DNA of 64,000 nt from Thermodesulfobacteriota bacterium. Lineage in GTDB: Bacteria; Desulfobacterota_D; UBA1144; Nemesobacterales; UBA2774. Shown here one piece after another: positions 17,131 through 41,164 of the stretch. Location: positions 1,696,001 to 1,760,000 of the forward strand of contig OY729416.1 of the NCBI GenBank assembly GCA_963422265.1. Reading direction: 5' to 3'. The position numbers were made by a program, and so were the translations under genes. How positions within the stretch are numbered: position 1 is the stretch's first letter; each line of letters begins with the position of its first letter. The notes under the pieces are model-generated. The model did not search any database and was not told where the DNA came from. It was given only the letters and a program-made list of their open reading frames with translations.

Positions 17131-17169
17131 GATGGATTAGGTGTGGTTGCCATGCCAAGCAAGCAGGTC

Positions 17170-18778: not shown

Positions 18779-18814
18779 AAAAAAAGGGGATAGGCTATTT
18801 AACAACCTATCCCC
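18779..18814 (-). terminator. Intrinsic terminator
   Basis: GGGGATAGG-loop-CCTATCCCC followed by a T run on the minus strand, downstream of 18866-19771. Confidence 0.8.
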
Positions 18815-18865
18815 CTACTAATTGTTACTATTCGTAATTACTCTTAATTACTTGTTAGCTACTAC

Positions 18866-19771
18866 TTACTTCTCAAACCTTCTCCACAGCCTACCAACTA
18901 AGATAAAAGCCGGGATTAGAAGATATGCGACTGGGAAGGAAGAGCTAGAGCTTCCAGATGACGCCAAGGCGCATCCAGAATCACCTTTGGGCCCGGAACC
19001 CCCTGGTTCTCCATGCTCACCGTCAACTCCGTCAACTCCGTCAACTCCAGGACGTCCATCGCGCACTTTCACACTATTAGCGGCCGTTTGCACTGCAGAA
19101 ACATTATCATCTATAGCCGTTTCCGCTAATATTTCGTCGGTCTCCTTATTCCTAATGCAAACTGAATCATCACCACTACAAGCATCATCTATATCCCTGA
19201 GTGTCGTTACCGGTTTATCATTAACATCCTTCACATCATCACGAACAATTACGCTTCCGTCTTCAGCCTCAACCACTATTTGAATAACTTCACTACCAGG
19301 GGCTTCCGCGTTAGGCTCCGCATTCGCCGTAAGCTTTTTCAAATTTCCTAGAGGAACAAAGAAACCTTCAGGAAGCGGCAGGGAAGATACACTCTTCAAC
19401 CCCATACCCTCTTGGCTCGTCTCAGTCGCAGCATCACTTACCCGACTAGCCTTCGTATCTACCTCAAGTTCCGTTATAAAGTCTCCACCCCCGAGCGTAT
19501 CGCCATCTAGTGATTTCTTAAATGCTGTAACCTCTACTTTAACTTCACCATCCGCCTCACATATTTGGTCTCCCGTGACCATCGTACCATCGTCGGTGAC
19601 TTTAATGACAGATACACTGGCTGTTGGATCCCCATCAGTCTTCCATGCACCTGCCACAAACTTTCCATCATCATCACAAAGTACCGCTTCGGCTGTAGGT
19701 GCTAGAATGAACAAACTACACAATAAAAAGCTAAAAACCCCTATCCCCAACGCAATGCTACGTTTACGCAT
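18866..19771 (-). CDS. Variable surface protein family A, copy 1 (signal peptide, variable core, collagen-like stalk, GC-TM-RR tail)
   Basis: Signal ending AEA; Gly-X-Y run GRPGVDGVDGVDGEHGEPGGSGPKGD; tail SGCALASSGSSSSSFPVAYLLIPAFILVGRLWRR; GGAGG RBS. Confidence 0.85.
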   Translation of the reverse strand: MRKRSIALGIGVFSFLLCSLFILAPTAEAVLCDDDGKFVAGAWKTDGDPTASVSVIKVTDDGTMVTGDQICEADGEVKVEVTAFKKSLDGDTLGGGDFITELEVDTKASRVSDAATETSQEGMGLKSVSSLPLPEGFFVPLGNLKKLTANAEPNAEAPGSEVIQIVVEAEDGSVIVRDDVKDVNDKPVTTLRDIDDACSGDDSVCIRNKETDEILAETAIDDNVSAVQTAANSVKVRDGRPGVDGVDGVDGEHGEPGGSGPKGDSGCALASSGSSSSSFPVAYLLIPAFILVGRLWRRFEK

Positions 19772-19890
19772 TTTTTACTACCTCCTCCAAGAATGAATTA
19801 TGTTTTTTACCTCTCATTACCCTTGCTACTTGCTCTGAAACCGCCCTGTCCAATAATGCTTGCTAAATACGCTTATCAAGGATTAACGAG
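19772..19890 (-). repeat. Conserved ~120-bp 5' leader of family A (also at 21290-21420 on + and 34445-34560 on -)
   Basis: gttaatccttgataagcgtatttagcaagcatta ... gaggtaaaaaacataattcattctt.gaggaggtagtaaaa is shared by three loci. Confidence 0.9.
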
Positions 19891-19934
19891 GGAATAAGGA
19901 GGCATCTTAGGGAGCTATTAAGGTGTTGCGGGGG

Positions 19935-20155
19935 GATTTATGTAAGGAAGGGACTCTCGTTCCCTGATGCCTATCAAATCCCCCTGTATCCCCCTTTTCT
20001 AAAGGGGGAGTATATGAGGAATGTTTTCGTTCCCCGATATCCTATCAAATCCCCCTGTGTCCCTCTTTTCTAAAGGGGGAGTGTATGAGGAATGTTTTCG
20101 TTCCCCGACGCCTATCAAATCCCCCTGTGTCCCTCTTTTCTAAAGGGGGATACAT
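19935..20155. repeat. Three ~70-bp REP units
   Basis: TATCAAATCCCCCTGTRTCCCYCTTTTCTAAAGGGGGA three times. Confidence 0.88.
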
Positions 20156-20207
20156 AGAGATGAAGAAGTGGAATTATAATATAGACGAGGCGCAAGGAGT
20201 GAAGATT

Positions 20208-20362
20208 ATGAGCCCTGAATTTGAGAAAGTGTTAGATACCAGAGTTTCTAATCTTGAGGATAGGATGGTGAATATAGAGACCGACATCAAAGAAATTAAG
20301 GCTTAATAGTTTGGCTGATAAGATAGACAACAACTTCAAATGGCTAGTAGGCATAGGGAAAC
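20208..20362 (+). pseudogene. Remnant of a small coiled-coil membrane-anchored protein
   Basis: AAGGAG + ATG; MSPEFEKVLDTRVSNLEDRMVNIETDIKEIKA stop, then IDNNFKWLVGIG in another frame. Confidence 0.5.
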
Positions 20363-20661
20363 GATAAAATAAATCCTTGACAAGTTTTGATAACTGGCGT
20401 TACAATCAGAACTGTTAATAGGGTGGCTTAGGAGAGACGCCATGCCTAGTTATAGTATTTATTGGACTGATTAGGATGAACCAGTGTGCTTGCGAGAATT
20501 GCTGATAATAATCAAGTATCTAAAGAAGAAACTGTAGATAGGATTTTTACACTACTTGGCGTTGTGCCTTTAGCAACCCTATTGTTTTGCAAAAAACAGT
20601 AACTAATTAAAGAATTAATAGAAATATGTTATAATTTTTACAAGCGATAAGGGGGCAAGAG

Positions 20662-20904
20662 ATGTCAGATACTTTCAATATCGTTGCAAGTTGGGATATT
20701 GAGGCTTCAGTTTGGGTTGCTACCAGTGATGATGTTATTGGACTTGTAGCTGAAGCTCCTACAGTTGAAAAACTGTTGGAAAAACTCAAAATCCTTATTC
20801 CAGAATTACTTGAGCTCAATCATTCTATTCTAGAAGAGAAACGCTCCCAAATCTCTATGCTTTTATCAAGAGTCATTTCAATGCAAGAACTTCAAATAGC
20901 TTAA
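20662..20904 (+). CDS. HicB-like antitoxin (DUF1902)
   Basis: WDIEASVWVATSDDVIGLVAEAPTVEKL...IPELLELN; adjacent hicA-like gene. Confidence 0.85.
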   Translation: MSDTFNIVASWDIEASVWVATSDDVIGLVAEAPTVEKLLEKLKILIPELLELNHSILEEKRSQISMLLSRVISMQELQIA

Positions 20905-20909
20905 CTTTT

Positions 20910-21104
20910 GTGGCTAATTATACAGAAGATTTGAAAAGAATTCTTCGCAAGGAAGGGTGTTACTTTAAGCATCAGGGTAAAGGCGACCATGAAATCTGGT
21001 AAAGTCCCAAATCTGACCGATATTTTCCAGTTGACAATGCAATCAAATCTCGTCATACAGCAAATAAAATTCTAAAACAAGCAGGGCTAAAAAAAGCCTT
21101 TTAG
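20910..21104 (+). pseudogene. hicA: HicA-family toxin with an internal stop
   Basis: Manual translation MANYTEDLKRILRKEGCYFKHQGKGDHEIW*SPKSDRYFPVDNAIKSRHTANKILKQAGLKKAF; TAA at 21000-21002; GKGDHE motif. Confidence 0.85.
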
Positions 21105-21243
21105 CTGGCAATTTATCACTCATCTTACTTGATTGGTAGAAATATGTTATAATTTATAAGTAATCTAAGTAATAAGGAGGTGAAAAAAGGATTCCCCAGC
21201 TTTAATTAATGAGCATCCGTTGTAAATTATTTGTGTAAATCAC

Positions 21244-21272
21244 TTGACAAATGCACCATCCTTTATTAGTAT
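21244..21272 (+). promoter_or_regulatory. Sigma70-type promoter upstream of family A copy 2
   Basis: TTGACA-N17-TAGTAT, ending just before the shared leader. Confidence 0.7.
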
Positions 21273-21420
21273 GAGAGATAGGTAAGGAAGTTAATCCTTG
21301 ATAAGCGTATTTAGCAAGCATTAGTTTCAGGGTTAGTAGCGAAGGTAATAAGTTTCAGGGTTAGTAGCGAAGGTAATAAGAGGTAAAAAAACATAATTCA
21401 TTCTTAGAGGAGGTAGTAAA

Positions 21421-22467
21421 ATGGTTATTAGTAGCATCATCAGTTTTTGCAGTTCACTTCCCCGCATTACGTTGGGGATAGGGGTTATTGGCTTTTTGTT
21501 GTGTAGCTTGTTCGTTCTTACGCCACAAGCCGAAGCGGAGCTTTGTGAGATAGATTACGAGCAAAAGACGGACAACAAAGGTGCAAAGCTTACTAACATC
21601 ACTGGATCCCCGCTGATGTTAAAAGTAGTACTTTTGGATGCATCATCAGTCTTTTCGAAACTCGAAATTTTTGAGACGGGGACAACGGGGAAAGCTAAAG
21701 TTACTTCTTCTTTCTGCGGTGACAAGTTCACCGACAGTGCCTCGAGCCGGATGTTAGGTCAAGACTCTAAAGAAAATGATGGGAAAAAATATAGGGTAAT
21801 AGCGACAATAACAAAAGAAGCTCTAGAAGGAGGGAATCTAACAGCGTTTAAGACATTAGGTAGTAGTACTAGTGGTTCAATTACAAATCCTCTTGCACCA
21901 TCTGCACCATCTATAAAGGAGCTTCATCTTACTGTTGTTGATTCTGAAGGGAAGGAAGTTTCCCCACTGGGACTTAATCCCAACCTGTTTGGGTCTTTAA
22001 GTGGACTGGAAGTGCTTAGGGTAAATGCAGAAGCGTATAATCCTTCCGCCGCTGTTAGTAGTCCTATTATTATAGAAGTAACGCGCAAGGGTGGTGGAGC
22101 TCTTATTACTACAGGGAAAATGGAACCTAATGGCAACTTAATAGCAAAGATGGTTAATCCTAATGGGACGGTAGGGGTCGAGTTGAACATAGCGCGTGAC
22201 TTAAAGGCGGGAATGATTGTGAATGATGGTAGTTTCCCGCGTCCGGGAAGTCAGGGTAAGGATGGTAAGGATGGTAAGGATGGTAAGGATGGTAAGGATG
22301 GTAAGGATGGTGCATCGGGAGAACAGGGACCACGCGGACCTGAAGGAGATTCTGGATGCGCCTTAGCACCATCTGGAAGTTCTAGCTCTTCCTTTTCCCC
22401 AGTTGTTTATCTGTTAATCCCGGCGTTTATCTTAGTCGGTAGGCTGTGGAGAAGGTTACAAGCGTAA
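21421..22467 (+). CDS. Variable surface protein family A, copy 2
   Basis: First 35 aa identical to 33401-34444; (GKD)6 collagen-like run from a 9-bp repeat; tail SGCALAPSG...LLIPAFILVGRLWRR. Confidence 0.85.
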   Translation: MVISSIISFCSSLPRITLGIGVIGFLLCSLFVLTPQAEAELCEIDYEQKTDNKGAKLTNITGSPLMLKVVLLDASSVFSKLEIFETGTTGKAKVTSSFCGDKFTDSASSRMLGQDSKENDGKKYRVIATITKEALEGGNLTAFKTLGSSTSGSITNPLAPSAPSIKELHLTVVDSEGKEVSPLGLNPNLFGSLSGLEVLRVNAEAYNPSAAVSSPIIIEVTRKGGGALITTGKMEPNGNLIAKMVNPNGTVGVELNIARDLKAGMIVNDGSFPRPGSQGKDGKDGKDGKDGKDGKDGASGEQGPRGPEGDSGCALAPSGSSSSSFSPVVYLLIPAFILVGRLWRRLQA

Positions 22468-22541
22468 CAATAATTAAGCATGAGGGGAGGAGAGTTTTTT
22501 CTTTCCCTCTTTAATCCAATTGAGACGAAGGAGGATCTAAA

Positions 22542-23339
22542 ATGAGTAAGATAAGTTATTTCAGTTCATATTCCCAGGTTGTATTGAGTATAGGAGTTGT
22601 TAGCTTTTTGTTGTTTAGTTTGTTTGTTCTAGCGTCCCCAGCCAGGGCGGGGATTTGTGATGATGATGGTTCTGTAACGGTTTTTGAAGTTGAAATGGAT
22701 ACTAAGGCCAGTAGTGTCTTCGAAGAAGAAGGCAAAGAAGTGGGAGACACTAAAGAGGTATGCACCCCTTCTTCCTCTGACGGCTCACCACCAGATAAGT
22801 ATTATCGGATAAAAACGGAAGAGCCTATAAAGTCCGATACGCTTAAAGACGCTGGATCAGTAACGCACGTTGAGACAACAGAAGATTCGTTACCATTTGC
22901 TGCAGATACGTTTACGGATACACCAAATTTGAAGGAGATTAGGGTACCCGCAAAGCTTAATCCAGAAGGAGCAACAACATCTGTCGAGACAAATCAAGAT
23001 GAAGATAGTTCAACGAACAAAATCACAGTAAGTATTTATAGTGACGTTGGAACAATTGTAGATGAGAACGGTCATCTCAAAGAAATAGATAATGCAAGTT
23101 GTGACCGGGATGCTACCTACGCTTGTCTTGCTGAAGTGAATGAGGACGGTAGTAGAGGAAAAAAATTGAAGGAAAACGATTTGTCAACAGAGATTGGAGG
23201 ACGGCCATCAGAGACAGCGAAGAAAGATGGAGACGACGGCGGTTGCGCGCTAGCGTCATCTGGAAGTGCCAACTTCGCTTTCCCTCTGTTATTACTGTTT
23301 ATCCCGGCATTTATTCTTGCTAGAAGATTAGGCAAGTAA
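22542..23339 (+). CDS. Variable surface protein family A, copy 3 (diverged, no collagen stalk)
   Basis: Signal ending ARA-GICDDDG; EMDTKAS and LKEIDNASC motifs shared with copies 1 and 4; tail GGCALASSG...FIPAFILARR; AAGGAGG RBS. Confidence 0.82.
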   Translation: MSKISYFSSYSQVVLSIGVVSFLLFSLFVLASPARAGICDDDGSVTVFEVEMDTKASSVFEEEGKEVGDTKEVCTPSSSDGSPPDKYYRIKTEEPIKSDTLKDAGSVTHVETTEDSLPFAADTFTDTPNLKEIRVPAKLNPEGATTSVETNQDEDSSTNKITVSIYSDVGTIVDENGHLKEIDNASCDRDATYACLAEVNEDGSRGKKLKENDLSTEIGGRPSETAKKDGDDGGCALASSGSANFAFPLLLLFIPAFILARRLGK

Positions 23340-23360
23340 GCCTTATTCTCTCTATAACTA

Positions 23361-23401
23361 GGGCGGAAGGGATTTTATTATTCCTTCTGCCCTCCTCTTT
23401 T
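23361..23401 (+). terminator. Probable intrinsic terminator
   Basis: GGGCGGAAGGGA...TTCCTTCTGCCC hairpin followed by a pyrimidine/T tract. Confidence 0.6.
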
Positions 23402-23404
23402 CCC

Positions 23405-23650
23405 ATCCTACCCATTCCATCATTTTGTAGGGGTAGCTCTTCCCCAATCAAGCTGGAGACATGCGTGGTTGTCTTAACCCTCCTTTACGAAAGGAGGGGA
23501 ATATCTCCTTCTCCCCCTTTAGAAAAGGGGGATATAGGGGGATTTGATAGGGCATCGGGGAACGAGTCCCTTCCTTATCCGTCATTCCCAACTGTATTGG
23601 GAATCCAGAAGGAGAAAAGGGGAACGAGAGTCCCTTCCTCACATAATCCC
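23405..23650. repeat. REP mosaic
   Basis: GTAGGGGTA, CCCTCCTTT..AAAGGAGGG, CCCCCTTTAGAAAAGGGGG and GTCATTCCC modules. Confidence 0.8.
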
Positions 23651-23706
23651 CCATAACGCCTTTATCGCAGACAAAAAGACCAAAAGCAGATAAACTTTCA
23701 ACTAAC

Positions 23707-24876
23707 ATGAAGGAAGCGCGCTCTTTTCAAAATCTGCTTAAAGACAAGATTTACACTGTTTCAGAAATCACAGCCAGGATAAAGGAGACCCTAGAAAATA
23801 AAATTGGATTCGAGCAAGTGTGGGTCGCGGGAGAGATCTCAAATTTCAGGGGCAATTACTCAAGTGGACACTGGTATTTCTCGTTAAAGGACTCAGGGGC
23901 TCAGATATCAGCGGTATGCTTCAAATGGGCTAATCAGTACATAAAGTTCACGCCCGAAAACGGTATGGAAGCTATATGCTACGGTCGGCTGAGCGTTTAT
24001 GAAAAGCAGGGATCATATCAATTAAACGTCAGGCACATAGAGCCTAAAGGAGTAGGTGCTCAGGCGATTGCTCTTGAGCAGTTAAAAGAGAAACTCCAAG
24101 CAGAGGGATTATTTGACAAGGCGAGAAAGAGACCTCTTCCCTATCTTCCGCGTAAGATCGGCGTCGTAACCTCCCCTACGGGCGCGGCTATCAGAGACAT
24201 TCTAAAGGTATTAGATAGGCGATTTCCAAACTTGCGGATATTGATCTCACCCACGAGGGTTCAGGGCGGCGAAGCAGCGAAAGACATCGTAACCGCCATT
24301 AACAGGCTATATAAAATACAAGGGGTTGATTTAATCATTCTGGCGAGGGGCGGGGGTTCTAAAGAGGACCTTTGGTGCTTTAACGACGAGGCTCTTGCGC
24401 GGGAAATAGTAAAATCCCCTGTCCCTATAATCTCTGCAGTAGGGCATGAGATTGATGTTACAATAGCGGACATTGTAGCCGATGCGCGCGCCGCAACTCC
24501 TTCTATGGCGGCGGAGATAGCCGTTAAGGAAAAGGACGAGCTAATGCGAGAACTGACAGAGCTAAGAGCCAAGATGGCAGGCGCTCTTAAAAATCGGATT
24601 GAACTTCTCGCCAGGGAAATAGATCAAATCCAATCCGAGTTAGTCTCCCACGTTAAGGCAAGGATTGAAGCTGCCAACGCCGAATTGGGCAGGCTCTCGG
24701 GAAAGCTTGACGCCCTGAGCCCGCTCAAGGTGCTTGACAGGGGTTACAGCATCACCTACAAACTCCCCTCAATGAAAGTAGTTAGAGAATCCAGCCAGCT
24801 AGAAAAAGGGGATGAAGTCCTTATCAGCTTTAGCAAAGGCAGAGCGATTTGCTTGGTTAAAGAGACGGAGAATTAG
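23707..24876 (+). CDS. xseA: Exodeoxyribonuclease VII large subunit
   Basis: WVAGEISN, SGHWYFSLKD, TSPTGAAIRD, ARGGGSKEDL, SAVGHEID, LSPLKVLDRGYS. Confidence 0.96.
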   Translation: MKEARSFQNLLKDKIYTVSEITARIKETLENKIGFEQVWVAGEISNFRGNYSSGHWYFSLKDSGAQISAVCFKWANQYIKFTPENGMEAICYGRLSVYEKQGSYQLNVRHIEPKGVGAQAIALEQLKEKLQAEGLFDKARKRPLPYLPRKIGVVTSPTGAAIRDILKVLDRRFPNLRILISPTRVQGGEAAKDIVTAINRLYKIQGVDLIILARGGGSKEDLWCFNDEALAREIVKSPVPIISAVGHEIDVTIADIVADARAATPSMAAEIAVKEKDELMRELTELRAKMAGALKNRIELLAREIDQIQSELVSHVKARIEAANAELGRLSGKLDALSPLKVLDRGYSITYKLPSMKVVRESSQLEKGDEVLISFSKGRAICLVKETEN

Positions 24877-25943
24877 GAGACGAGGCTATTAAGCTCTTGC
24901 GCAACGTAGAACTCAATACCCGCGCCCCTGAAAACCTTTTGAACTTGCTCTGACGGGGGGTGATCCGTGAATACGTATTTCGCCCTGCCTCCGACGTCCT
25001 TTTTGAGTTTTTTCTTAGGCGACTGCCCATTTAAGCCCAACTGCACTCTTTCATAGATTCTTTCTATTCCTTCCCTAGTTTCAAATATGATAGACGGTTT
25101 AACTTCTAGTATATCTCTATAGAAATCCTTTCTTGACTCAGTCGTGCACGCCATACTACCCTTGTATAGAGTGAGGTAATTGATTAGAGTCGAAAACGGA
25201 CTTATGGAAGGCATGTATGAAAAAGCCTGATCTTCGGTAGTTATGGATAGAGGCGCTTGACAGATGCTGTCTAGTGCTTTAATTACATCGCCTTGCGACG
25301 CCCTTTTGATCCCGTTACGCATCGGAAAGACGAGGGCAGTCAAAGAGGCGTTCAGATTTTTCGGTATCTCCATCAACTCGTCCAGGATTTTCCTTTTTCT
25401 CATCATCCCATATTTCAGCACAGTCTGAAAATTCGTTATCCTCTCGTTTTTTACCCTCTCATTGTGAAAAAAGATTACCTTCTCTACCATAGGCAGATTA
25501 TCTAGCGAGCGGATGAATAGACCTGATGCATCCCACCCCCTGTTCTCATGGGGACGGGCAAGAGCGGGCAGGGATTCTCGCCCAACAAATACGAACTTAG
25601 CCTCTAAACGATTTGCCATCTCTACAATTTCCTCAACCATGTCTCTATCTCTGAACGGTAGGGGGCTACCGCCACCGCATAGTGGGACGATGATTCCACC
25701 TAGATGATAAACAGCTATCTCCGTTGAAATAGCCTCGAGCCTATTTGCCGATGCTATGATTACCGTATCACCTCTTGCCAGACCGAGATCCATAAGATAC
25801 GCGGCTATATTTTTGACCTGTCCATCAAAGTCTAGCCAAGTGATTTGTTTCCAACTCCAGCCATCTCTACGTTGAAACAGCAGCTTTGCGCCGTGCTCTT
25901 TCACGCGGTTCTCAATCAACCCTGGTATAGTATTTGCAGGCAT
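24873..25943 (-). CDS. Degenerate AMP-binding / acyl-CoA synthetase-like protein (N-terminal part only)
   Basis: N-terminus WKQITW...IAAYLMDLGLARGDTV...GGIIVPL resembles FadD15-type enzymes; no recognisable TSGTTGxPKG motif; 356 aa. Confidence 0.6.
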   Translation of the reverse strand: MPANTIPGLIENRVKEHGAKLLFQRRDGWSWKQITWLDFDGQVKNIAAYLMDLGLARGDTVIIASANRLEAISTEIAVYHLGGIIVPLCGGGSPLPFRDRDMVEEIVEMANRLEAKFVFVGRESLPALARPHENRGWDASGLFIRSLDNLPMVEKVIFFHNERVKNERITNFQTVLKYGMMRKRKILDELMEIPKNLNASLTALVFPMRNGIKRASQGDVIKALDSICQAPLSITTEDQAFSYMPSISPFSTLINYLTLYKGSMACTTESRKDFYRDILEVKPSIIFETREGIERIYERVQLGLNGQSPKKKLKKDVGGRAKYVFTDHPPSEQVQKVFRGAGIEFYVAQELNSLVS

Positions 25944-26019
25944 GTAGAATCCTCGGTGTTTTAGTTCAAACGCCTTATCATGCTTAGAGATAACAACTCG
26001 CAGCGTCTTGAACGTGCGC

Positions 26020-27000
26020 TGCCCTGAACGTATTGAAGGGTTGAACAGTGGCTTTACCCATCTTCATCTAAGCGGGGAAGGATAGCTACTACAAAAGGGG
26101 TTGGCAACTACAGTTCAGGACAGCGCTAGGGTCCCTCCCCTACAGGTAAACAAGAAAATCCACCCTATCCCTCCTTTACAAAAGGAGGGGAATATCTCCT
26201 TCTCCCCCTTTAGAAAAGGGGGATACAGGGGGATTTGATAGGGCATCGGGGAACGAACCCCTTCCTTATTCCCCATCTCCCTACTTAAATACACACAGGG
26301 AGATGCTTCCGCAGGAATGACGGACAGTGGTATGAATTCTCACCCCTCCCATCATTATTGTAGGGGTAACCCTTGTGGTTGCCCTTTTCTTTGCCTTTAT
26401 AAAAGGAGGGGAATATCTTCTCTAACTCCTGAACCTGTAGAAGGGCAAAGCACAACTGAGAAACCTAGTCTTTTCCCCCTCTCCCCCTGGAAGAGGGACA
26501 CAGGGTGAGGGTGTTTTCATCATTCCTGCCCCCGAGCGGGAATACAGTAAGAGGGGTGGGGAACGAAAACATTCCTCATATACTCCCCCTTTAGAAAAGG
26601 GGGATATAGGGGGATTTGATAGGGCATCGGGGAATGAACCCCTTCCTTATCCCCCATCTCCCTACTTAAATACACACAGGGAGATGCTTCCACAGGAATG
26701 ACGGACAGGGGTATGAATTCTCACCCCTCCCTTCCTTTCGTAGGGGTAACCCTTGTGGTTGCCCTTTTCTTTGCCTTTACCTCAGGGCGACTACAAGAGT
26801 CGCCCCTACAAACAAAAAGAAAATCCACCCTATCCCTCCTTTACCAAAGGAGGGGAATATCTCCTTCTCCCCCTTTAGAAAAGGGGGATATAGGGGGATT
26901 TGATAGGAGTCGGAGAACGAAGATTCTTCCTTTCCTTGTGTCTCCCTTCCCTACTAGATTCCTGCTTCCGCAGGAATGACGAGGAGGGGGTATTCCCGTG
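26020..27000. repeat. REP mosaic with internal duplication
   Basis: ~26200-26395 matches ~26582-26778; same modules as elsewhere. Confidence 0.88.
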
Positions 27001-27075
27001 TGGGTTAGGAGGACGGCGTCTGATAACGTAAATTGTAGTTAAGACAATTTATTAAGGTTATAATTCCCTACTAGG

Positions 27076-28368
27076 ATGTCGGTTGAAATAATTAAAGGAG
27101 GCTCTAGGCGACTCAGGGGTGAGGTGACACCTCCGGGGGACAAGTCTATATCGCACAGGTCTATTATCTTGAGCTCTCTTGCGCTGGGAAAATCAAGGGT
27201 AAGTGGATTTCTGAACTCTGACGATGCGACTTCTACCGCCAATGCGATGAGGGCGCTTGGAATCCGAGTAGAGACTAAAGGAGGGGGCGAAATCCAGATA
27301 GAGGGCAAGGGGCTTTACGGGTTGAGAGCGTCCAAGGGGGTTATAGATGCTGGCAACTCCGGAACTACTGCCAGATTGTTGATAGGATTACTAAGCGCTC
27401 AGCCCTTTGACTCTCGTATCACGGGGGATAAATATCTAAGGGCAAGACCTATGAGAAGGGTGGTAAATCCCCTGAGGCTTATGGGGGCTAGGATTGATGG
27501 AGTGGAAGATGGAGGCAGGCTTCCCCTTGCCATACGCGGGAGTAGGCTAACGGGAATATCATATCAATCGCCCGTAGCCAGCGCTCAAGTGAAATCGGGG
27601 CTTCTTTTAGCCGGGCTTTACGCTGATGGGAGGACTGAGGTGATAGAGCCTAATCCAACTAGAGACCACACAGAGAGAATGCTCTCTTATTTCGGGGTTA
27701 AACTTGTCGTGAATGACAACGTCATTGCTATAGAGAAGCCCGATGAATTTATGGGGACGAATATCTCGGTTCCGGGTGATATTTCTTCTGCGGCTTTTTT
27801 TATAGTCGCTGCATTGATAAACCCAAACTCAGAGATACTAATCAAAAACGTGGGCATAAACCCCCTTAGAACAGGGGTTTTGGAGATTCTAACGAAAATG
27901 GGTGGTAACATAGAGATTTTAGATAAACGGGAAGTAAGTGGGGAGCCAGTGGCGGACGTGCTTGTTAGGTCAAGCGATTTGCGCTCAACGGAAATAGGGG
28001 GCGACCTGATTCCCAAGGCGATTGATGAGCTTCCCGTGATATCAGTAGCGGCGTGTTTTGCAGAGGGGCGGACTATAATTAAAGACGCCGGCGAGCTAAG
28101 GGTTAAGGAGACTGATAGGATCAGGGCTATGACCTCTGAGCTTAATAAGCTAGGCGCGCACGTAGAGGAATTGAAGGATGGGATGTCAATTGAGGGAAAT
28201 GAATCGCTGAGGGGGGCAAGGTGCTCGAGCTGGGGCGATCACAGAATAGCTATGGCTATAGCGGTAGCCGGGACGAGAGCCCGAGGGGAGACTGAAATTG
28301 AGAACGCCGTCGCCGTCGCTATATCCTATCCAGGCTTTTTCGCGACGCTAAGCGGGTTGAGCGCGTGA
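27076..28368 (+). CDS. aroA: 3-phosphoshikimate 1-carboxyvinyltransferase
   Basis: PGDKSISHR, DAGNSGTTARL, SAQVKS, RDHTERML, RVKETDRI, DHRIAM. Confidence 0.97.
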   Translation: MSVEIIKGGSRRLRGEVTPPGDKSISHRSIILSSLALGKSRVSGFLNSDDATSTANAMRALGIRVETKGGGEIQIEGKGLYGLRASKGVIDAGNSGTTARLLIGLLSAQPFDSRITGDKYLRARPMRRVVNPLRLMGARIDGVEDGGRLPLAIRGSRLTGISYQSPVASAQVKSGLLLAGLYADGRTEVIEPNPTRDHTERMLSYFGVKLVVNDNVIAIEKPDEFMGTNISVPGDISSAAFFIVAALINPNSEILIKNVGINPLRTGVLEILTKMGGNIEILDKREVSGEPVADVLVRSSDLRSTEIGGDLIPKAIDELPVISVAACFAEGRTIIKDAGELRVKETDRIRAMTSELNKLGAHVEELKDGMSIEGNESLRGARCSSWGDHRIAMAIAVAGTRARGETEIENAVAVAISYPGFFATLSGLSA

Positions 28369-28378
28369 GGCGTTTCTA

Positions 28379-28750
28379 CTAAGGCGTGGAGAAAGGGGAG
28401 AAACTCGCGGTCTTCTCCCGATTTCCCTCTTTATTAACCCCCGGGTCCGCCGACTCTTTCTGAGACTGGGTCGTTTGTTTGAGCTCAGCTTCCAATTGCC
28501 GTATTCTGTTTTTTAGTGTGGATCTGTTGGAAACCGTTTGGAACACGCCCATAAGTAAAGCCAATAGCCCTCCGATAACAAACGAGCAGACAATAATAAC
28601 TATGTTCGTAGTTAAGTAGGGGCCTATAGAATAAGCCCTAAGGTCAAATCTAAGTTCAAACTTATGGGTGAATACTTCAAGATTCTGAGTGTAAAGTATG
28701 GCGAAAGAGGTTACCAGTAAAATTACTAATAGCGCTTTTACGAATCTCAT
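28379..28750 (-). CDS. LapA-family membrane protein
   Basis: Two hydrophobic helices with QN after the first and a C-terminal coiled coil; lies downstream of rpsA-sppA. Confidence 0.65.
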   Translation of the reverse strand: MRFVKALLVILLVTSFAILYTQNLEVFTHKFELRFDLRAYSIGPYLTTNIVIIVCSFVIGGLLALLMGVFQTVSNRSTLKNRIRQLEAELKQTTQSQKESADPGVNKEGNREKTASFSPFSTP

Positions 28751-28856
28751 CGCTTATCCCCCTTCAGGCGGTTTTTAATCTTTGTCAAGAGTCTAGTAAA
28801 TACCCTCTCCCCCTTATATATCCTATTAAACGCAAGCGCCCAAAGCGTTTTCACTC

Positions 28857-29726
28857 TCAGTTAATTATATCAGCTAGATAGAAGAGTCCAAAGCTGGCTT
28901 GTTTCGGAATGTCCGATAATGCTCCTAAGCCTACTTTAGATAATAGAAAATCTAGAAACTCGCGCTTTCTTTTCGGATAATAAACGGTTTCTGGCTCTCC
29001 CTGTATTCCGGCCAGATTTCCCGCCGCGCTTATAGCGTCGTTTATAGTCCCTAGCTCGTCTATTAGCTTAAGCGCCTTTGCCTGCTCACCGGTAAACACC
29101 CTTCCATCCGCGATTTGGCTTATTTGCTTTGGGTTGAGTTTTCTCTCCACCGCCACCGTGTTTTTGAACTGCTCGTAAACGTTGTTTATAAGCTCTTGAA
29201 TGTATTGCCTATCTGGATCGCTCATCTTCCTAAATGGCGTGCCAGCGTCTTTGTATTTTCCGCTTTTAATGATTTCCACGTCAACCTTAGCCCATTCCAG
29301 AAGCTTTCCGTAGTTGGCGAACTGGGCTATGACTCCGATGCTACCCGTGATAGCCCCGGGATTCGCATATATGCTTTCGGCGGCACAGGCTATGTAGTAG
29401 CCACCGGAGGCTCCTATCCCTCCAATACTCGCAACGACGGGCATCTGTGCTCTAAGGCGTTTGATTTCGCCGTATATTTCTTGAGATGGGCCAACGGCTC
29501 CTCCTGGAGAGTCGATTCTCACGACCAGGGCTTTGATGTGGGAAGCCTTTTTGATTTTCTTGAGGCTATCAAGATAGATTTGCGAATCCAGTATTACGTC
29601 TTGAACCTTGAGCACCGCGACCGTCCCGTCGCCCTTAAGCCCTTTCTTGCCCGACGTGAAGAGGATCACGCCTACCGCTATAACGCAAATGAGACCTGCG
29701 ATCATAGCTATCAGTAACAATCGCAT
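28857..29726 (-). CDS. sppA: Signal peptide peptidase SppA (36K type)
   Basis: RIDSPGG, ASGGYYIA, TGSIGVI, KSGKYKD, DGRVFTG. Confidence 0.95.
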   Translation of the reverse strand: MRLLLIAMIAGLICVIAVGVILFTSGKKGLKGDGTVAVLKVQDVILDSQIYLDSLKKIKKASHIKALVVRIDSPGGAVGPSQEIYGEIKRLRAQMPVVASIGGIGASGGYYIACAAESIYANPGAITGSIGVIAQFANYGKLLEWAKVDVEIIKSGKYKDAGTPFRKMSDPDRQYIQELINNVYEQFKNTVAVERKLNPKQISQIADGRVFTGEQAKALKLIDELGTINDAISAAGNLAGIQGEPETVYYPKRKREFLDFLLSKVGLGALSDIPKQASFGLFYLADIIN

Positions 29727-29732
29727 AACTAA

Positions 29733-31421
29733 CTATTCCGCCTTGTCATTGGTTATTGATTTTAGCCTTTCTCCAAGCACATCACCGAGTTTTAGGGTAT
29801 GCTCGTCCGTAGAAGAGACGAATTTAGATATTCTTTCTCTTTCAAGCTGCTCGTCATATTTGCTCTTGCTCAGGTTGACTTGACGCTTTCTTTTATCAAA
29901 GCCTATGAACTGCGCAGTTATCTCGTCGCCGACGTTAAAGTTTTTAGCTACATCTATCCTCTGTCCTTCCCGAGACAACTCGCTTTGGTGTATGTAGCCT
30001 TCTACTTTATTTTCGAGCTCAACTACTAAACCTCTATCTTTAACGTCCTTGATCTTTCCGGTAACTACGGTTCTTCCGGGCTTATATCTATCCTGAGCGT
30101 CTTTCCATGGATCCTTTGTGAGTTGTTTGACCCCAAGCCCCACTCTCTCTTTTTCCACTTCTATGTTTAATACGACCACTTCAATCTCATCACCTATTTT
30201 GAATAGCCCTTCGGGGTTGACCCTCTCTCCCCACGAGACATTATCGGGTCTCAACAAGCCTACGACGTCTTCGGCGACCTCGACAAATACTCCTATATCC
30301 GTTACGTTCCTGATCTTGCCCTTTACCCTTGAACCGGGCGGATTGTCTTCTTTGAAAACCTGCCATGGGCTAGGCATGATCCTTCTTAGGCTTAGAGACA
30401 TTTTTCTGCTTTCATAGTCAACGGTTAGCACTATAGCGTCCAGAACGTTTCCGATTTCAACGGCGTCCTTAGGATGACGGAGCTTTTTTGTCCAGGCGAT
30501 TTCAGAGATATGAATTAATCCTTCTATGCCGGGTTCAAGCTCGACGAAGACCCCGAAATTCATTATTGACACCGCTTTTGCCTTGACCCTGGTTCCCGTC
30601 TTGTATTTTTCCTTGGCTGATTTCCATGGGTCGGGAAGCATTTTTTTAAGACTGAGCGTGATCTTTTCCTCACCTTCTATCTTAAGAACGCTTACGTTTA
30701 TTTCATCGTCTATGGATATGACTTGGCTTGGATGTTTGATCCTCCCCCAGCAAAGCTCACTTATGGGAACGAAGCCCTCAATGCCCCCTATATCGACAAA
30801 AACGCCTTGATTGATAATGTTCACTACCTTTCCTGATATTACCTTTTCCTCTTCAATAGTGGAAAGGGTTTCCTTTTTTAGCTTATTGCGCTCCTCCTCA
30901 AGATAGACCCTGCGTGAAAGGACAATATCATCACCCACGAGCTTTATTATCCTCGCCTCCAGGATTTGCCCAACAAATCTGTCCAGATTCTTTTGCGGTC
31001 TCACGTCCAATTGTGATCCGGGAACAAAGGCTTTGATCTCTGTTTCGTTGCCAACGTCGGCGATAAGTCCACCTTTTACCTGCCTGATTACCTTAGCCTT
31101 TATCAGTTCGCCTTTCTCAAAGGCATTGCGAATTACTTCGTTTTCCCTGATCAACCGCGCCTTAGTCTTAGAGAGCCTAGGGGGTCCATCGCTTACCCAC
31201 CTGTCCAATACTACCTCAACCTCCTCTCCTACTTTTACGTCTAGCCCTCCGCTTGTATCGTAGAACTCGCTCTTGGGTACTACCCCTTCTGATTTTGATC
31301 CAAAGTCTATAAATACGTCGTCCCGATCAATCCCGACGACAACACCCTTAAATACATTTTCTCTGTCCGGAGGCTTCATGCTCTCATCTACTAACTCCGC
31401 AAAATCTCTCTCTTCTTCCAT
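29733..31421 (-). CDS. rpsA: 30S ribosomal protein S1
   Basis: Repeated S1 domains (GVFVELEPGIEGLIHISE); downstream of cmk. Confidence 0.95.
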   Translation of the reverse strand: MEEERDFAELVDESMKPPDRENVFKGVVVGIDRDDVFIDFGSKSEGVVPKSEFYDTSGGLDVKVGEEVEVVLDRWVSDGPPRLSKTKARLIRENEVIRNAFEKGELIKAKVIRQVKGGLIADVGNETEIKAFVPGSQLDVRPQKNLDRFVGQILEARIIKLVGDDIVLSRRVYLEEERNKLKKETLSTIEEEKVISGKVVNIINQGVFVDIGGIEGFVPISELCWGRIKHPSQVISIDDEINVSVLKIEGEEKITLSLKKMLPDPWKSAKEKYKTGTRVKAKAVSIMNFGVFVELEPGIEGLIHISEIAWTKKLRHPKDAVEIGNVLDAIVLTVDYESRKMSLSLRRIMPSPWQVFKEDNPPGSRVKGKIRNVTDIGVFVEVAEDVVGLLRPDNVSWGERVNPEGLFKIGDEIEVVVLNIEVEKERVGLGVKQLTKDPWKDAQDRYKPGRTVVTGKIKDVKDRGLVVELENKVEGYIHQSELSREGQRIDVAKNFNVGDEITAQFIGFDKRKRQVNLSKSKYDEQLERERISKFVSSTDEHTLKLGDVLGERLKSITNDKAE

Positions 31422-31547
31422 GTCTAAGCCTTTTTGCTAATATGGTTTTTAACGTATGCCCGACGCCACGTCCTTTGCTCCTGACGTATCAATCTGAAGT
31501 CTGAAGCATTCATTGTCCGAAACGCAATAAGATTACCCTCCTTGAGG

Positions 31548-32216
31548 TTAAGCCCTCGTCCGAACTTCCCTGATGATCTTATCCACGACCGCGTCAGCGT
31601 TAAAATTAGTAGTATCTATTATTACTGCATTACTAGCAGGATGCAAGGGAGACACCGAGCGTTCCACGTCTTGCTTATCTCTGAGTCGGATCTCCTCTCT
31701 TATATCGTCCACTTTTACCGCTGCTGATTCCAACTCTCTCCACCTTCTTGACGCGCGCTCGTCAAGAGTGGCGTCTAAATAAAACTTAAAATCCGCGTCT
31801 GGAAATACGTAAGTTCCCATGTCTCTCCCCTCAATCACTACGTCGCCGTTCTTTGCAATTTCTCTCTGTATAGAGACGAGTTTATTCCTTACTACCTTCT
31901 TAGTGGCTACGTCTGAGGACAGACGGGTTATTTCTCGCGTTCTGATCTGATCGGTTACGTCTTCGTCGTCTAGTCTAATAACCATACTGTTCGCGCCCTT
32001 GTTCTCAAAACTGATATTGACGTTAATCATAAGGGATTTAAGACTATCCTCATCGTTAATATCGACCGAATTTCTTTTTGCCTGTAGAGCCACCACCCTA
32101 TACATGGCTCCCGTGTCCAGATATGTAAATCCCAGCCTTCTCGCTACGGATTTAGCCGCCGTGCTTTTTCCGACCCCTGAAGGTCCATCTATCGTAATGA
32201 TTAAACCTCTTTTCAT
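31548..32216 (-). CDS. cmk: Cytidylate kinase
   Basis: IDGPSGVGKST, YLDTGAMYR, EGRDMGTYVFPDA. Confidence 0.96.
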   Translation of the reverse strand: MKRGLIITIDGPSGVGKSTAAKSVARRLGFTYLDTGAMYRVVALQAKRNSVDINDEDSLKSLMINVNISFENKGANSMVIRLDDEDVTDQIRTREITRLSSDVATKKVVRNKLVSIQREIAKNGDVVIEGRDMGTYVFPDADFKFYLDATLDERASRRWRELESAAVKVDDIREEIRLRDKQDVERSVSPLHPASNAVIIDTTNFNADAVVDKIIREVRTRA

Positions 32217-32294
32217 TTATGGTGCGTATCTCACGAAAGTCGTAGTAAGTAAAATACCTAAGAGCCAAGGCGGATGACAATAGATATAAGGAAC

Positions 32295-33290
32295 TGGATT
32301 CCTACTCGGAGGCGGGAATGATGAAAACACCCTCACCCTGTACCCCTCTCCCAGAGGAGGGAGAGGGGGAAAAGACTAGGTTTCTCAGTTGTGCTTTGTC
32401 GTTAGGCAAGCTCAGGAGTTAGAAAGGATATTCCCCTCCTTTTGTAAAGGCAAAGAAAAGGGTAACCACAAGGGTTACCCCTACAAGTTAAGGAATCCAA
32501 AGGGGGTGGGGGTAGGTAAGCAAGGAAGGAATTCGTGTTCCTCGACGCCTATCAAATCCCCCTGTATCCCCCTTTTCTAAAGGGGGAGAAGGAGATATTC
32601 CCCTCCTTTCGTAAAGGAGGGTTAGGGTGGATTTGCTTTGTGTTTGTAGGGGCGCGCCGCCTAGCGATGTCCTGATCGTGCTGAAGGATGGTTGTTCCAA
32701 GTCGTGAAGGTGATGGGTAACCACAAGGGTTACCTCTACGAAAGGAAGGGTGGGGTGAGAATTCATACCGCTCTGTCCGTCATTCCTGCGGAAACATCTC
32801 TCTGTGTATATTGCTAAGTAGGGAGATGGGGGATAAGGAATGTTTTCGTTCCCCGATGCCTATCAAATCCCCCTGTATCCCCCTTTTCTAAAGGGGGAGA
32901 AGGAGAAATTCCCCTCCTTTTGTAAAGGAGGGATAGGGTGGATTTTCTTTGTGTCTGTAGGGGCGCGCCGCCTAGCGATGTCCTGAGTGGTCAGTGTGTC
33001 ATCCTGAGTTTACCGAAGGTAGCATAGCCGAACTGCCTGCCGAAGGACGATGTGCTGAGCTTGTTGAAGGGTGGTCGCCCTAAGGTAAAGATAAGGGTAA
33101 TCATGCATATCCCCAACTTGATTGAGGAACTGTATTCCCGCTCGGGGGCGGGAATGATGAAAACTCCCTCACCCTGTGTCCCTATCCCAGGGGGAGAGGG
33201 GGCAAACGAGATTTCTCGGTTGCGCTTTGCTCTTCTTCGGTAGGCTCAGGATATCCTTGCTCCCCTTTCTGGATTACGGAGAATACGCAC
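32295..33290. repeat. REP mosaic
   Basis: ~32325-32650 closely matches ~17885-18205; ~32970-33070 matches ~17583-17683. Confidence 0.88.
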
Positions 33291-33311
33291 GGCTTTCTAC
33301 ACTAGTAAAAT

Positions 33312-33350
33312 AAAAAAAGGGGATAGGATGATGACTAACAACCTATCCCC
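33312..33350 (-). terminator. Intrinsic terminator (paralog of 18779-18814)
   Basis: GGGGATAGG...CCTATCCCC plus a T run. Confidence 0.8.
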
Positions 33351-33400
33351 CTACTAATTGTTACTATTCGTAACTGCTCTTATTACTTGTTAGCTACTAC

Positions 33401-34444
33401 TTACTTCTCAAACCTTCTCCACAGCCTACCGACTAAGATAAAAGCCGGGATTAGAAGGTATGCGACTGGGAAGGAAGAGCTAGAGCTCCCAGATGACGCT
33501 AAGGCGCATCCATCAGATCCTTTAGGTCCGCGCTCCCCTTGCGGTCCATCAGATCCTGCAGGTCCTGTTTCTCCTTGTTCCCCTCTCATCACAAGGTCTT
33601 TTACAACTTTTTTAATATTTTCTTCTTTCTTATCTTCTTCTGCTTCTTCCTTCGCTTCCTCAGTTAAGAAGCCGCCGACTACTAATTCGCCTACCATTAC
33701 TCTCTTCTTGCTGTCTTCACCTTCAATACAAGCCTTACCTTCAACGCAACTAGCACTATCAGCATTGTCTATATCCAGCAACTTCCCATCTTTCACAATC
33801 TTACCACCGCCTTTTTCAGTAACAGTTAGTAGTTGGATTGACTTGTCCCCACCTGTCTGCGATGTCTCAGCAGCCTCAGCTTCTTTTAGTTTTACCCACA
33901 GTAATAACTTCTCTAAGCTGCCTAGATGACCAAACATACCTTTGGGAAGAGGTAGTTTTACTGGGCTAGCCTTTGCACCAAGCTCAAGCACCGTCACGCT
34001 ACCTGCACCCTGAAATAAATCTTCGCCGCCTTCAAGTTGAAATTCTCCTTTTTTAGAGAAGACAACTAGCTTAAAAGAATCCGCGTACTTTTTTACAAAC
34101 TCTTGGTCGCAGATGTAATCGATTCCTTTACTTTCATTTCCTCCTTCAATAATATCTTCTTTGACGTAATCAACAGGGTCTTCAGGTTTTCCCGTCAAAG
34201 GGTCTGCCTTGATTGTAGCCTTTTTATCTTCCCCCATAATAAATGTGGGACCCATAAATCTGAGGACGGGTTTGTCACTCTCATTCCAATTCGCCTCGAT
34301 ATACTTACCGTCTGAACCACAAATTGCTGCCTCGGCTGTAGGCGTAAGAACGAACAAGCTACACAACAAAAAGCCAATAACCCCTATCCCCAACGTAATG
34401 CGGGGAAGTGAACTGCAAAAACTGATGATGCTACTAATAACCAT
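33401..34444 (-). CDS. Variable surface protein family A, copy 4
   Basis: N-terminus identical to copy 2, C-terminal tail identical to copy 1, unique middle; collagen-like GEQGETGPAGSDGPQGERGPKG. Confidence 0.85.
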   Translation of the reverse strand: MVISSIISFCSSLPRITLGIGVIGFLLCSLFVLTPTAEAAICGSDGKYIEANWNESDKPVLRFMGPTFIMGEDKKATIKADPLTGKPEDPVDYVKEDIIEGGNESKGIDYICDQEFVKKYADSFKLVVFSKKGEFQLEGGEDLFQGAGSVTVLELGAKASPVKLPLPKGMFGHLGSLEKLLLWVKLKEAEAAETSQTGGDKSIQLLTVTEKGGGKIVKDGKLLDIDNADSASCVEGKACIEGEDSKKRVMVGELVVGGFLTEEAKEEAEEDKKEENIKKVVKDLVMRGEQGETGPAGSDGPQGERGPKGSDGCALASSGSSSSSFPVAYLLIPAFILVGRLWRRFEK

Positions 34445-35010
34445 TTTACTACCTCCTCTAAGAATGAATTATGTTTTTTTACCTCTTATTACCTTCGCTA
34501 CTAACCCTGAAACCACCCGTTTACTAATGCTTGCTAAATACGCTTATCAAGGATTAACGAGGGAATAAGGAGGCATCTTAGGGAGCTATTAAGGTGTTGC
34601 GGGGGGATTTATGTAAGGAAGGGACTCTCGTTCCCTGATGCCTATCAAATCCCCCTGTATCCCCCTTTTCTAAAGGGGGAGAAGAAGATATTTCCCTCCT
34701 TTTGTAAAGGAGGGATAGGGTGGATTTTCTTTTTGTTTGTAGGAGGGGGACCCTAGCGCTGTCCTGAGTGGTCAGTGCGACATTCTGAGTTTACTGAAGG
34801 GGGCATAACCGCATTGCGCGCCGGGGGGTTAGGGAACGAGAATATTGCCTTATCCTCCCCCATCCCATCTGGATTCCTGCTTTCGCTTTATCCTTCTAAA
34901 CCCGTTATATCAGCATTTCTGTAGCTATTTATAAAGCAACTTGCTTGTTTGTTTATATTAGTTCGTGTAAAAATTAACTATATAGCAAGTATATTAAGGA
35001 GATAACAATT

Positions 35011-35664
35011 ATCTATAAGCAAGCATCCATCTGTCTTATAGGAATTCTTTTACTCACAGTTAGCCTATCAACCTCCTCTAGGGCGCAAGGGGCGCCGCAA
35101 GGACTTGCGGCGACACCTGGAAACAAAAAGGTGGAGTTGGAATGGGAGTATCCTGATGACGACAACATCGTTAGTTACGAGTTAAAGTGGTGGACTGATC
35201 CCGATTCTACTAAGTATAGCCATTACCAAGTCTGGGAGGGCATTCCGGAAAGTAATAAGAACACGACCACGTACACGGTGAGGGATCTGTGGGACGACGG
35301 CGTGTGGTATGGATTCCGCATCCGTGCGGTGTATGGCGGCGATGTTAAGGGACATCCGTCCGAGATCGTCCGCGCGACGCCAACTTCGACGCCGGTTTTG
35401 CCACCAGATAAGACTAAGGAGCAGGATTCACCTCACCCCCCCCCCCCCCCCACAATGAACGATAGCGGAAGCAGCGGGGGCTGCGCTCTTATTGGTGTAG
35501 GTGTAGAAGGAGAGGGTGAAGAAGGCGCTGGATTTTTAGCTATTTTATTTTTATTAGCGCTAATCCCCTCAGTTCGTATTTATAGGTCGAGGGTAGGCGG
35601 CTCACAAGCAGCCCCTGTTGTAGGGGTAATTACCTGTATCCCTCTCCCAGGGGGGAGCATGTAA
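35011..35664 (+). pseudogene. FN3 surface protein family B, copy 1; start codon is ATC
   Basis: Same RBS and signal-peptide DNA as 39255 and 40394 but ATC TAT AAG in place of ATG TAT AAG; frame open; C16 tract at 35436-35451; altered extreme C-terminus. Confidence 0.7.
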
Positions 35665-35940
35665 GGAAGGGGTTACGTTCCCTGCTGTCTATCAAATCCC
35701 CCTATATCCCCCTTTTCTAAAGGGGGGAATATGTGAGGAAGGGGTTACGTTCCCTGCTGTCTATCAAATCCCCCTATATCCCCCTTTTCTAAAGGGGGAG
35801 TGTATGAGGAATGTTTTCGTTCCTCGATGTCTATCGAATCCCCCTGTATCCCCCTTTTCTAAAGGGGGAGTATATGAGGAATGTTTTCGCTCCTCGACCC
35901 TCTTACTGTATGCCCGCTCGGGGACAGGAGTGACGGTGGG
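35618..35940. repeat. REP mosaic with three ~70-bp units
   Basis: Three AATCCCCCTRTATCCCCCTTTTCTAAAGGGGG units. Confidence 0.85.
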
Positions 35941-36043
35941 AGGGTATTACGGGGAGGAGTGAACAACGGTGGGTGTATATCTACCTGACGTATTCTCTAA
36001 CGTAGCCTTGCACCCATGCTAAAATCGTCTATCCTTTTAGGCT

Positions 36044-41152: not shown

Positions 41153-41164
41153 GGGTAATTACCT

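Follow-up and report, generated by a model that had tools for sequence, protein, structure and literature searches.

Shared inverted leaders and mosaic gene ends in a predicted family of collagen-like surface proteins of a Thermodesulfobacteriota bacterium

The window analysed here, 64 kb in length, covers bases 1,696,001-1,760,000 of the single-contig 1.78-Mb (1.784 Mb) genome of an uncultured Thermodesulfobacteriota bacterium, and coordinates are positions in this window unless the genome is named. Four paralogous genes, c1 to c4 (Table 1), are found from 18.8 to 34.6 kb; all are open frames, and their products are, as predicted from their sequences, a lineage-restricted family of four secreted cell-surface proteins. 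Three of the genes begin with a common leader, inverted at c2 relative to c1 and c4, and the initial annotation had proposed an antigenic-variation locus in which inversion would bring other copies under a promoter possessed by c2 alone. Every element that it described is present within a few bases of where it had been placed. The reading favoured here, in which about even confidence is held, is that these are ordinary co-regulated paralogs, separately transcribed, whose ends have been homogenised and whose leaders carry a dyad that would be a shared regulatory site. An expression-site switch, in which one strong promoter would be passed among three collagen-stalk genes by inversion at the dyad, through RecA or a distant recombinase, is considered unlikely. 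Newly found are the 34-nucleotide (nt) block holding the dyad, the mosaic structure of c4, the architecture of the proteins and the hypervariability of c1.

Mosaic ends and divergent heads

The 131-nt leader of c2 has exactly three matches genome-wide, in c2 itself (100%), c4 (83%) and c1 (79%), and the sharing first noted between the minus-strand genes c1 and c4 and the plus-strand gene c2 thus extends over 114-131 nt at just these places. The c2 copy is longer through a perfect tandem duplication of 28 nt (21323-21380, +). Over its first 34 nt the leader is 100% identical in c1, c2 and c4; this block is present in three copies in the whole genome, with no others even when up to 7 substitutions are allowed. 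It holds a 13-6-13 dyad, the arms of which (in c2, 21292-21304 and 21311-21323, with the spacer at 21305-21310) are complementary at 11 of 13 positions, the left arm including the TTGATA motif. Neither further copies of the dyad site nor paired half-sites were found elsewhere in the genome. The right arm agrees at about 5 of 11 positions, judged by eye, with what we take to be the dif consensus.

The homology of c2 to c1 and c4 begins abruptly at 21290, 2 nt outside the dyad, and the c2 sequence upstream of that point is unrelated to theirs; alignment confirms the sharp edge just downstream of TTGACA-17-TAGTAT that had been reported. On the far side of the block c1 and c4 do have a different sequence in common, as had also been recognised. 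This sequence, here called U1, is identical at 133 of 139 aligned bases and is composed of 41 nt plus one unit of an abundant repeat resembling a miniature inverted-repeat transposable element (MITE).

The c4 gene is a mosaic, c1-like upstream of the block (95.7%) and c2-like in its leader and signal peptide. Downstream of the block the leaders of c2 and c4 are 97.5% identical, versus 87% for c1 and c4, and the corresponding figures for the signal-peptide DNA are 93.7% and 81%. In the first 127 coding bases, the signal-peptide part, c2 and c4 are identical at 119, which bears out the near identity described earlier. Leader and signal-peptide codons together make up the 196-nt arms of a c2/c4 inverted repeat, 12.8 kb apart and 96% identical; the inverted repeats inferred at the outset are therefore real, and they are well beyond chance (E 5e-95 and 8e-32). 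At the opposite end of the genes, c1 and c4 show 90% identity over their 3'-terminal 226 nt; between the gene middles no DNA similarity was detected. These segmental identities indicate concerted evolution of the ends, with exchange between copies that has included the inverted pair c2 and c4.

The products, likewise, align at their ends only. Their heads, of about 190-245 residues, show 27-34% identity between paralogs, and that of c1 also varies between strains. A contig of run X5 over c1 differs from the window at no fewer than 61 of 938 aligned bases and has a further stretch of 80 nt that could not be aligned, whereas six other X5 pieces across the locus have 26 differences in 10,973, including none in 958 over c4; c1 diverges about 27 times more between strains than its flanks do. 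An allele from another assembly, the 298-amino acid (aa) protein P0003, differs from c1 in 59 alignment columns, all of them within residues 33-244 of 301, and one GVD triplet has been lost between the two. In c1, then, divergence or allele replacement is concentrated in the head, which is what one would expect if the protein is exposed at the surface.

According to the favoured reading, the 5' cassette (dyad block, leader and signal peptide) and the 3' tail would owe their likeness to gene conversion and selection, the heads meanwhile diverging fast; the evidence for this combination lies in the mosaic identities and the strain alleles. Each unit would be transcribed on its own: c2 and c3 from the sigma-70-like site upstream of the c2 leader, and c1 and c4 from a weaker one lying within the shared leader or close to it, for which TTGATA-18-TAnTnn is a candidate. 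The gene c3 probably shares the transcript of c2, and the invariant dyad would act as an operator or -35 region common to the copies. Rare RecA-dependent inversion would be possible between cassettes oriented in this inverted way, as a by-product of a heavily rearranged, repeat-ridden region and not as a programmed switch.

Conserved ends around unalignable middles could also be produced if c1 and c4 were reservoirs from which heads are copied by gene conversion into an expressed c2, with no inversion at all. The conversion tracts at the 5' ends fit such a scheme, as does the confinement of c1 allele replacement between strains to residues 33-244. It is nonetheless highly improbable: c1 and c4 are complete genes, each with its own ribosome-binding site, start codon and signal peptide; they would be the only two donors; contigs of run X7, described below, cover both of them; and a family profile run on the genome gave 5 matches, all within c1-c4, with no partial cassettes.

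Promoters, recombination and orientation

That a consensus-like promoter is present at c2 alone proved correct (a 10/12 match, TTGACA-17-TAGTAT). Promoter-like sites as a class are not above expectation in the region, 8 having been found in 18700-23500 against 8.7 +/- 2.9 in shuffled sequences. The c2 promoter is probably real, since in this genome intergenic DNA has 4.3 times as many sites of at least 10/12 per kb as coding DNA does (1.00 vs 0.23). Such a site lies within about 150 nt upstream of 152 of the 1345 genes; as the remaining 1193 (89%) are without one, its absence does not mark c1 and c4 as silent. A weaker candidate, TTGATA-18-TAnTnn (8/12), is conserved in all three leaders.

Three other explanations of the 5' region were tried and rejected. 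As an RNA element, the leader gave no Rfam match at E <= 1 in 17000-36500, and its consensus fold has a value of -6.9 kcal/mol with 0 of 19 pairs covarying. A small local inverton around the promoter came down to an 11-nt AT-rich pair that does not enclose it. Nor does the promoter belong to a repeated element, as 20150-21289, a stretch of 1,140 nt, is unique in the genome.

Several observations weigh against separately transcribed paralogs. The candidate promoter within the leader is weak, with a poor -10 element; no regulator gene was found near the locus; and a terminator-like hairpin sits between c4 and the nearest promoter-like sites upstream of it. The homology, moreover, ends at the outer edge of the invariant dyad, 17 nt after a good promoter, a layout that a promoter swap would be expected to have, and the 5' identity of c2 and c4 reveals at least one past recombination between these inverted repeats.

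Promoter-swapping inversion of one kind or another, taken as a whole, is possible but rather unlikely. In one form, RecA-type recombination would flip either the 1.4-kb segment between c1 and c2 or the 12.8-kb segment between c2 and c4, so that the c2 promoter drives one head and the rest are silent. The inverted repeats are 116-258 nt in length with an identical core of 34 nt, the probably real promoter lies just outside the homology, and the genome has a recA gene (a single match, 443.8 bits). Both of the candidate silent copies have the same upstream sequence, built of a hairpin-rich repeat. An earlier c2-c4 exchange is proved by the mosaic 5' end of c4, and the products are surface proteins, c1 being hypervariable between strains. 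Outside the core, however, the c1 and c2 leaders are only 82.5% identical, which is poor for RecA; there are just three switchable copies; and the contigs of the possibly-RNA run X7 cover all four genes. The larger segment, in addition, contains rpsA, cmk, aroA and xseA, and both its gene order and its strand-specific skew fit a stable orientation. Inversion of this form is judged distinctly unlikely.

The gene order can be derived by a single inversion unrelated to the family. In 5 of 5 relatives, belonging to four genera, aroA, cmk, rpsA, sppA, lapA and lipA are all co-directional. Here, over 27076-36044, the lapA-sppA-rpsA-cmk block is inverted between the other two genes, while aroA, inside the 12.8-kb segment, and lipA, outside it, keep the orientation to each other that they have in the relatives; the stop codons of aroA and lapA are 10 nt apart. 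One cmk..lapA inversion, not involving the family repeats, suffices to give the present order. Other ancestral neighbours of this cluster have been dispersed to at least seven places in the genome, including those at about 28, 62-65, 139, 1686-1688, 1699 and 1704 kb.

For the skew, origin and terminus were taken from the extremes of the cumulative GC skew, the minimum at about 1.6 Mb and the maximum at about 0.5 Mb. At third codon positions, leading-strand genes have GC and AT skews (GC3, AT3) of +0.127 and -0.083 (n=812) and lagging-strand genes of +0.002 and +0.039 (n=533), with standard deviations of 0.12-0.17. Skews of the lagging type are seen in rpsA (-0.004, +0.222) and sppA (-0.092, +0.203), and of the leading type in aroA (+0.245, -0.033) and c2 (+0.262, -0.142), each matching the strand that the gene now occupies. 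This weakly favours an orientation of the 12.8-kb segment that has been long stable over one that has often flipped. The c1 gene has a leading-type skew (GC3 +0.274, AT3 -0.217) though it is on the lagging strand, a hint that it changed strand or arrived only recently. The skew extremes imply unequal replichores, of about 0.68 and 1.1 Mb, and, if the origin placed by skew is correct, the highly expressed rpsA is oriented against the replication fork.

Sequence data bearing on orientation consist of short-word contigs of four runs. The listed pieces end inside the repeated leader (at 19883; at 21319, with a restart at 21495; and at either end of a piece running from 33413 to 34370), where a word of 31 letters, which we presume to have been the word length, would lose its uniqueness; as the contigs break at the repeats, the orientation of the segments is not readable from them. 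No piece among those listed links the promoter side to the gene side, and none of the joints touches the leader among the matches listed (15 of 51). The seven joints between opposite strands among those listed all fall in MITE-like arrays and have sides of 32-54 letters. Contigs of run X7, which is guessed to be of RNA and may be of DNA, cover parts of c1, c2, c3 and c4; they give little or no cover at 20332-21419 and their depths are uneven between genes, and neither the holes nor the depths are interpretable.

In the other form of inversion, the dyad would be the core site of a distant tyrosine recombinase: XerC, XerD or a 384-aa enzyme encoded at 0.62 Mb. The geometry of the dyad and its complete conservation (100%) in three copies amid varying flanks are what such a site might show, as is the start of the c2 homology 2 nt outside it. 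The genome does have three tyrosine recombinases, all about 500 kb or more away (PF00589 matches at 0.49, 0.62 and 1.17 Mb); no recombinase gene was detected in the window, as the initial annotation had said, and there are no serine or DEDD invertases in the genome (0 matches to PF00239 and 0 to PF01548). In Mycoplasma agalactiae each vpma gene has its recombination site within its conserved 5' untranslated region, and a single promoter serves the locus, according to the part of the published account used here (PMC2268961). In that same part xer1, mbr and hvsR stand next to their loci, whereas no recombinase gene adjoins this one, and two of the three enzymes look like the housekeeping XerD (386 bits, above the cut-off) and XerC (327 bits). 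A dyad overlapping TTGATA would fit a repressor or activator operator equally well, and the genome has neither another copy of the site nor paired half-sites. The c1 and c4 sites, moreover, are direct repeats bracketing essential genes, and recombination between them would risk lethal deletions. All told, this form is very unlikely. None of 40 related genomes contained the leader, if one 35-nt match at chance level is set aside, and the dyad pattern was not found in the GTDB species genomes or the JGI metagenomes.

The third tyrosine recombinase (genome 623903-625057) is a divergent one; its best match, of 56 bits and far below the cut-off, is to an archaeal XerA-type model, and it adjoins a gene for a 356-aa protein with no NCBIfam match.

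Proteins and surrounding sequence

Table 1. Genes, leaders and neighbouring features of the c1-c4 locus, in window positions.
Feature	Position	Strand	Remarks
c1	18866-19771	-	301 aa, predicted secreted: signal peptide, variable head, GVD x3 collagen-like triplets, Gly-Cys/transmembrane/basic tail
c1 leader	19772-19887	-	116 nt
c1 leader downstream of invariant block	19772-19853	-	87% to c4, 82.5% to c2
Invariant 34-nt block, c1 copy	19854-19887	-	
U1, c1 copy	19888-20030	-	upstream sequence common to c1 and c4
Promoter-like TTGACA-18-TACAAT	20377-20406	+	11/12, upstream of hicB
hicB-like antitoxin gene (DUF1902)	20662-20904	+	
hicA toxin gene	20910-21104	+	interrupted by in-frame TAA; PF07927 37.5 bits, X at stop
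Promoter-like TTGACA-17-TAGTAT	21244-21272	+	10/12; c2 only; ends 17 nt before homology starts
c2 leader	21290-21420	+	131 nt
Invariant 34-nt block, c2 copy	21290-21323	+	contains TTGATA
Inverted repeat, left arm	21352-21547	+	c2 leader and signal-peptide codons; 196 nt, 96%
c2	21421-22467	+	348 aa; Pfam Collagen above cut-off; GKD-encoding repeat at 22255-22311
c3	22542-23339	+	265 aa; without leader; starts 74 nt past c2
Terminator-like hairpin	23360-23393	+	after c3
lapA-sppA-rpsA-cmk block	28379-32216	-	inverted vs order in 5/5 relatives
c4	33401-34444	-	347-aa paralog
Inverted repeat, right arm	34318-34513	-	c4; 196 nt, 96%
c4 leader	34445-34558	-	114 nt
c4 leader downstream of invariant block	34445-34524	-	97.5% to c2
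Invariant 34-nt block, c4 copy	34525-34558	-	
U1, copy upstream of c4	34559-34701	-	95.7% to c1 copy
MITE-like arrays	17250-18800, 19931-20150, 23458-23665, 26149-26940		
MITE-like arrays, continued	32289-33200, 34527-34865, 35649-35936, 39893-40000		

The signal peptides of the four proteins, predicted to be cleavable, end in AEA or ARA followed by x-x-Cys, and no lipobox was seen before the Cys when c1-c4 were read by eye. The collagen-like triplets are encoded by tandem repeats, in c2 a perfect 9-nt unit present 6.3 times and coding for GKD (22255-22311), and in c1 a 9-nt unit present 3.2 times and coding for GVD. Against Pfam Collagen (PF01391), c2 scores 30.1 bits, above the gathering cut-off of 27.2; c1 (19.0) and c4 (20.8) are below it and c3 has no match. 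The tail consists of GCALASSGSSSSSF, a hydrophobic helix and RLWRR.

Whole-protein searches of 5.8 billion proteins recovered only c1, c4 and the allele P0003; the other 76 of 79 matches to c2 cover at most 27% of it, nearly all of them carrying PF01391. A profile of the four heads, run against 1.84 billion representative proteins, had five matches, three of them family members and two marginal. One of the latter, P0081, is an RCC1-repeat protein and was rejected as spurious; the other, P0082, is a BspA-type leucine-rich repeat (LRR) protein matching through an LPLPxGxF..LGNLxKL motif (E 1.8e-4), and may be a weak hint of one LRR-like unit in the heads. The family was not found in the GTDB species genomes or the JGI metagenomes. 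AlphaFold2 on c4 alone gave an unusable model, with a confidence score (pLDDT, predicted local distance difference test) of 37, and a search of the ESM Atlas gave no usable match. The c2 protein has no 100% match among the 5.8 billion proteins, whereas c1 and c4 are present there; c3 is present only in the library of representatives at 50% identity.

Unrelated proteins of 50-1,900 aa carry the tail at their C-terminus in 37 of 119 further genomes from the phylum, and none of the four tails matches the curated NCBIfam sorting-signal models at E <= 10. Exosortase and rhomboid genes were not found in the genome. It does encode a sole CPBP (Rce1-like) protease, of 218 aa, at about 1.328 Mb (genome 1328496-1328786), whose best matches are to MrtP, Mrt_core and MrtC at 60-72 bits against cut-offs of 100-250 (core domain 67 vs 100). 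From these features the tail can be read as a putative myxosortase-like sorting tail, probably processed by this single protease, which would also be a candidate processing enzyme for the Gly-Cys tails across the phylum. A second set of proteins with a related tail is encoded at 35131-35664, 39255-39863 and 40394-41152, and at 38387-45939 of the genome; here the tail runs GGC(A/S)LIG, an acidic Gly-rich spacer, a helix and RIYRSR, and some of the proteins have an fn3 domain. The stretches 34824-35604 and 39073-39845, 4.24 kb apart, are direct duplications of each other at 85-99% identity.

The MITE-like repeat is rich in hairpins and made up of 72-nt units with a 21-nt core, of which 147 copies are present in the genome at up to 2 substitutions. 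Most of the cores (112 of 147) fall within 1.70-1.78 Mb and 0-0.05 Mb, flanking both contig ends, in a cluster about 100-230 kb past the minimum of the cumulative GC skew. From 17 to 36 kb, arrays of the repeat sit at nearly every boundary of gene blocks. Three MITE-like units lie in the 1.4 kb that separates c1 from c2, together with a hicBA pair in which hicA is broken. An exact 19-nt direct repeat flanks the pair (20619-21155) and includes TGTTATAAT, which resembles an extended -10 motif; its second copy lies about 100 nt upstream of the c2 promoter.

Comparison with known systems

If the locus did prove to be a switch, promoter-swapping antigenic variation would extend to an uncultured lineage with a reduced genome, from which no surface variation is known to us, and, to our knowledge, this would be the first such system outside the classical pathogens and the host-restricted mycoplasmas; it would bring with it a new protein family with a myxosortase-type anchor, and a compact model of three genes with a defined 34-nt site. 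If the genes are ordinary paralogs, they would be a clean example of recombination keeping the export and anchoring ends uniform while the exposed head diverges. The locus also points to a phylum-wide Gly-Cys C-terminal sorting tail unmatched by the curated models used here.

In the sap system of Campylobacter fetus, a single sapA promoter is moved between S-layer gene homologs by DNA inversion, and the conserved 5' region extends over several hundred bp. The present locus resembles it in having opposed surface-protein homologs alike in the 5' leader and in the DNA coding for the N-terminus, a promoter that two divergent copies have between them and that lies outside the homology, one small and one large candidate invertible segment, and a recA gene in the genome. 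Unlike in sap, the conserved 5' region here is of 116-258 nt, the copies number three, the invertible segments are putative, and the large one holds essential housekeeping genes; the product, too, would be a collagen-stalk protein with a sorting tail and not a type I-secreted S-layer protein.

At the vpma locus of M. agalactiae, xer1 adjoins a set of genes with a unique promoter, among which the 5' untranslated region and the signal peptide are conserved and the recombination sites span -1 to -72, and in vpma, the M. bovis vsp and the M. pulmonis vsa loci alike an adjacent tyrosine recombinase inverts DNA at sites in the 5' untranslated region around a single promoter, as set out in the portion of the account drawn on here (PMC2268961). 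As far as that portion goes, c1, c2 and c4 are like these genes in the conservation of the 5' untranslated region and signal peptide ahead of divergent mature parts, in the presence of one consensus-like promoter, and in an invariant leader dyad that could be a recombination site. They differ from what is described there in that the nearest recombinase is about 500 kb off and in that the products are, when read by eye for a lipobox, not lipoproteins.

In their overall plan the proteins recall the streptococcal collagen-like proteins Scl1/SclA and Scl2/SclB (NF038330, NF038329), with a signal peptide, a hypervariable head, a Gly-X-Y stalk of varying repeat number and a C-terminal anchor. The best NCBIfam matches of c1, c2 and c4 are to these Scl models, at 15-28 bits against cut-offs of 325-400. 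The scores, so far below the cut-offs, come from the triplets alone; the tail is of the Gly-Cys/transmembrane/basic type and not LPXTG, and the head is without relatives. The parallel, drawn from a comparison of architectures, is an analogy and not a membership.

For the tail, the closest counterpart is the MYXO-CTERM signal with its myxosortase (NF040914, NF040674, NF040594). Though no tail here matches a curated model and the protease falls below every curated cut-off, the likeness lies in an invariant Gly-Cys, a hydrophobic helix and an Arg/Lys end, in the occurrence of the tail on many unrelated proteins across the phylum, and in one CPBP protease whose best matches are to the myxosortase models.

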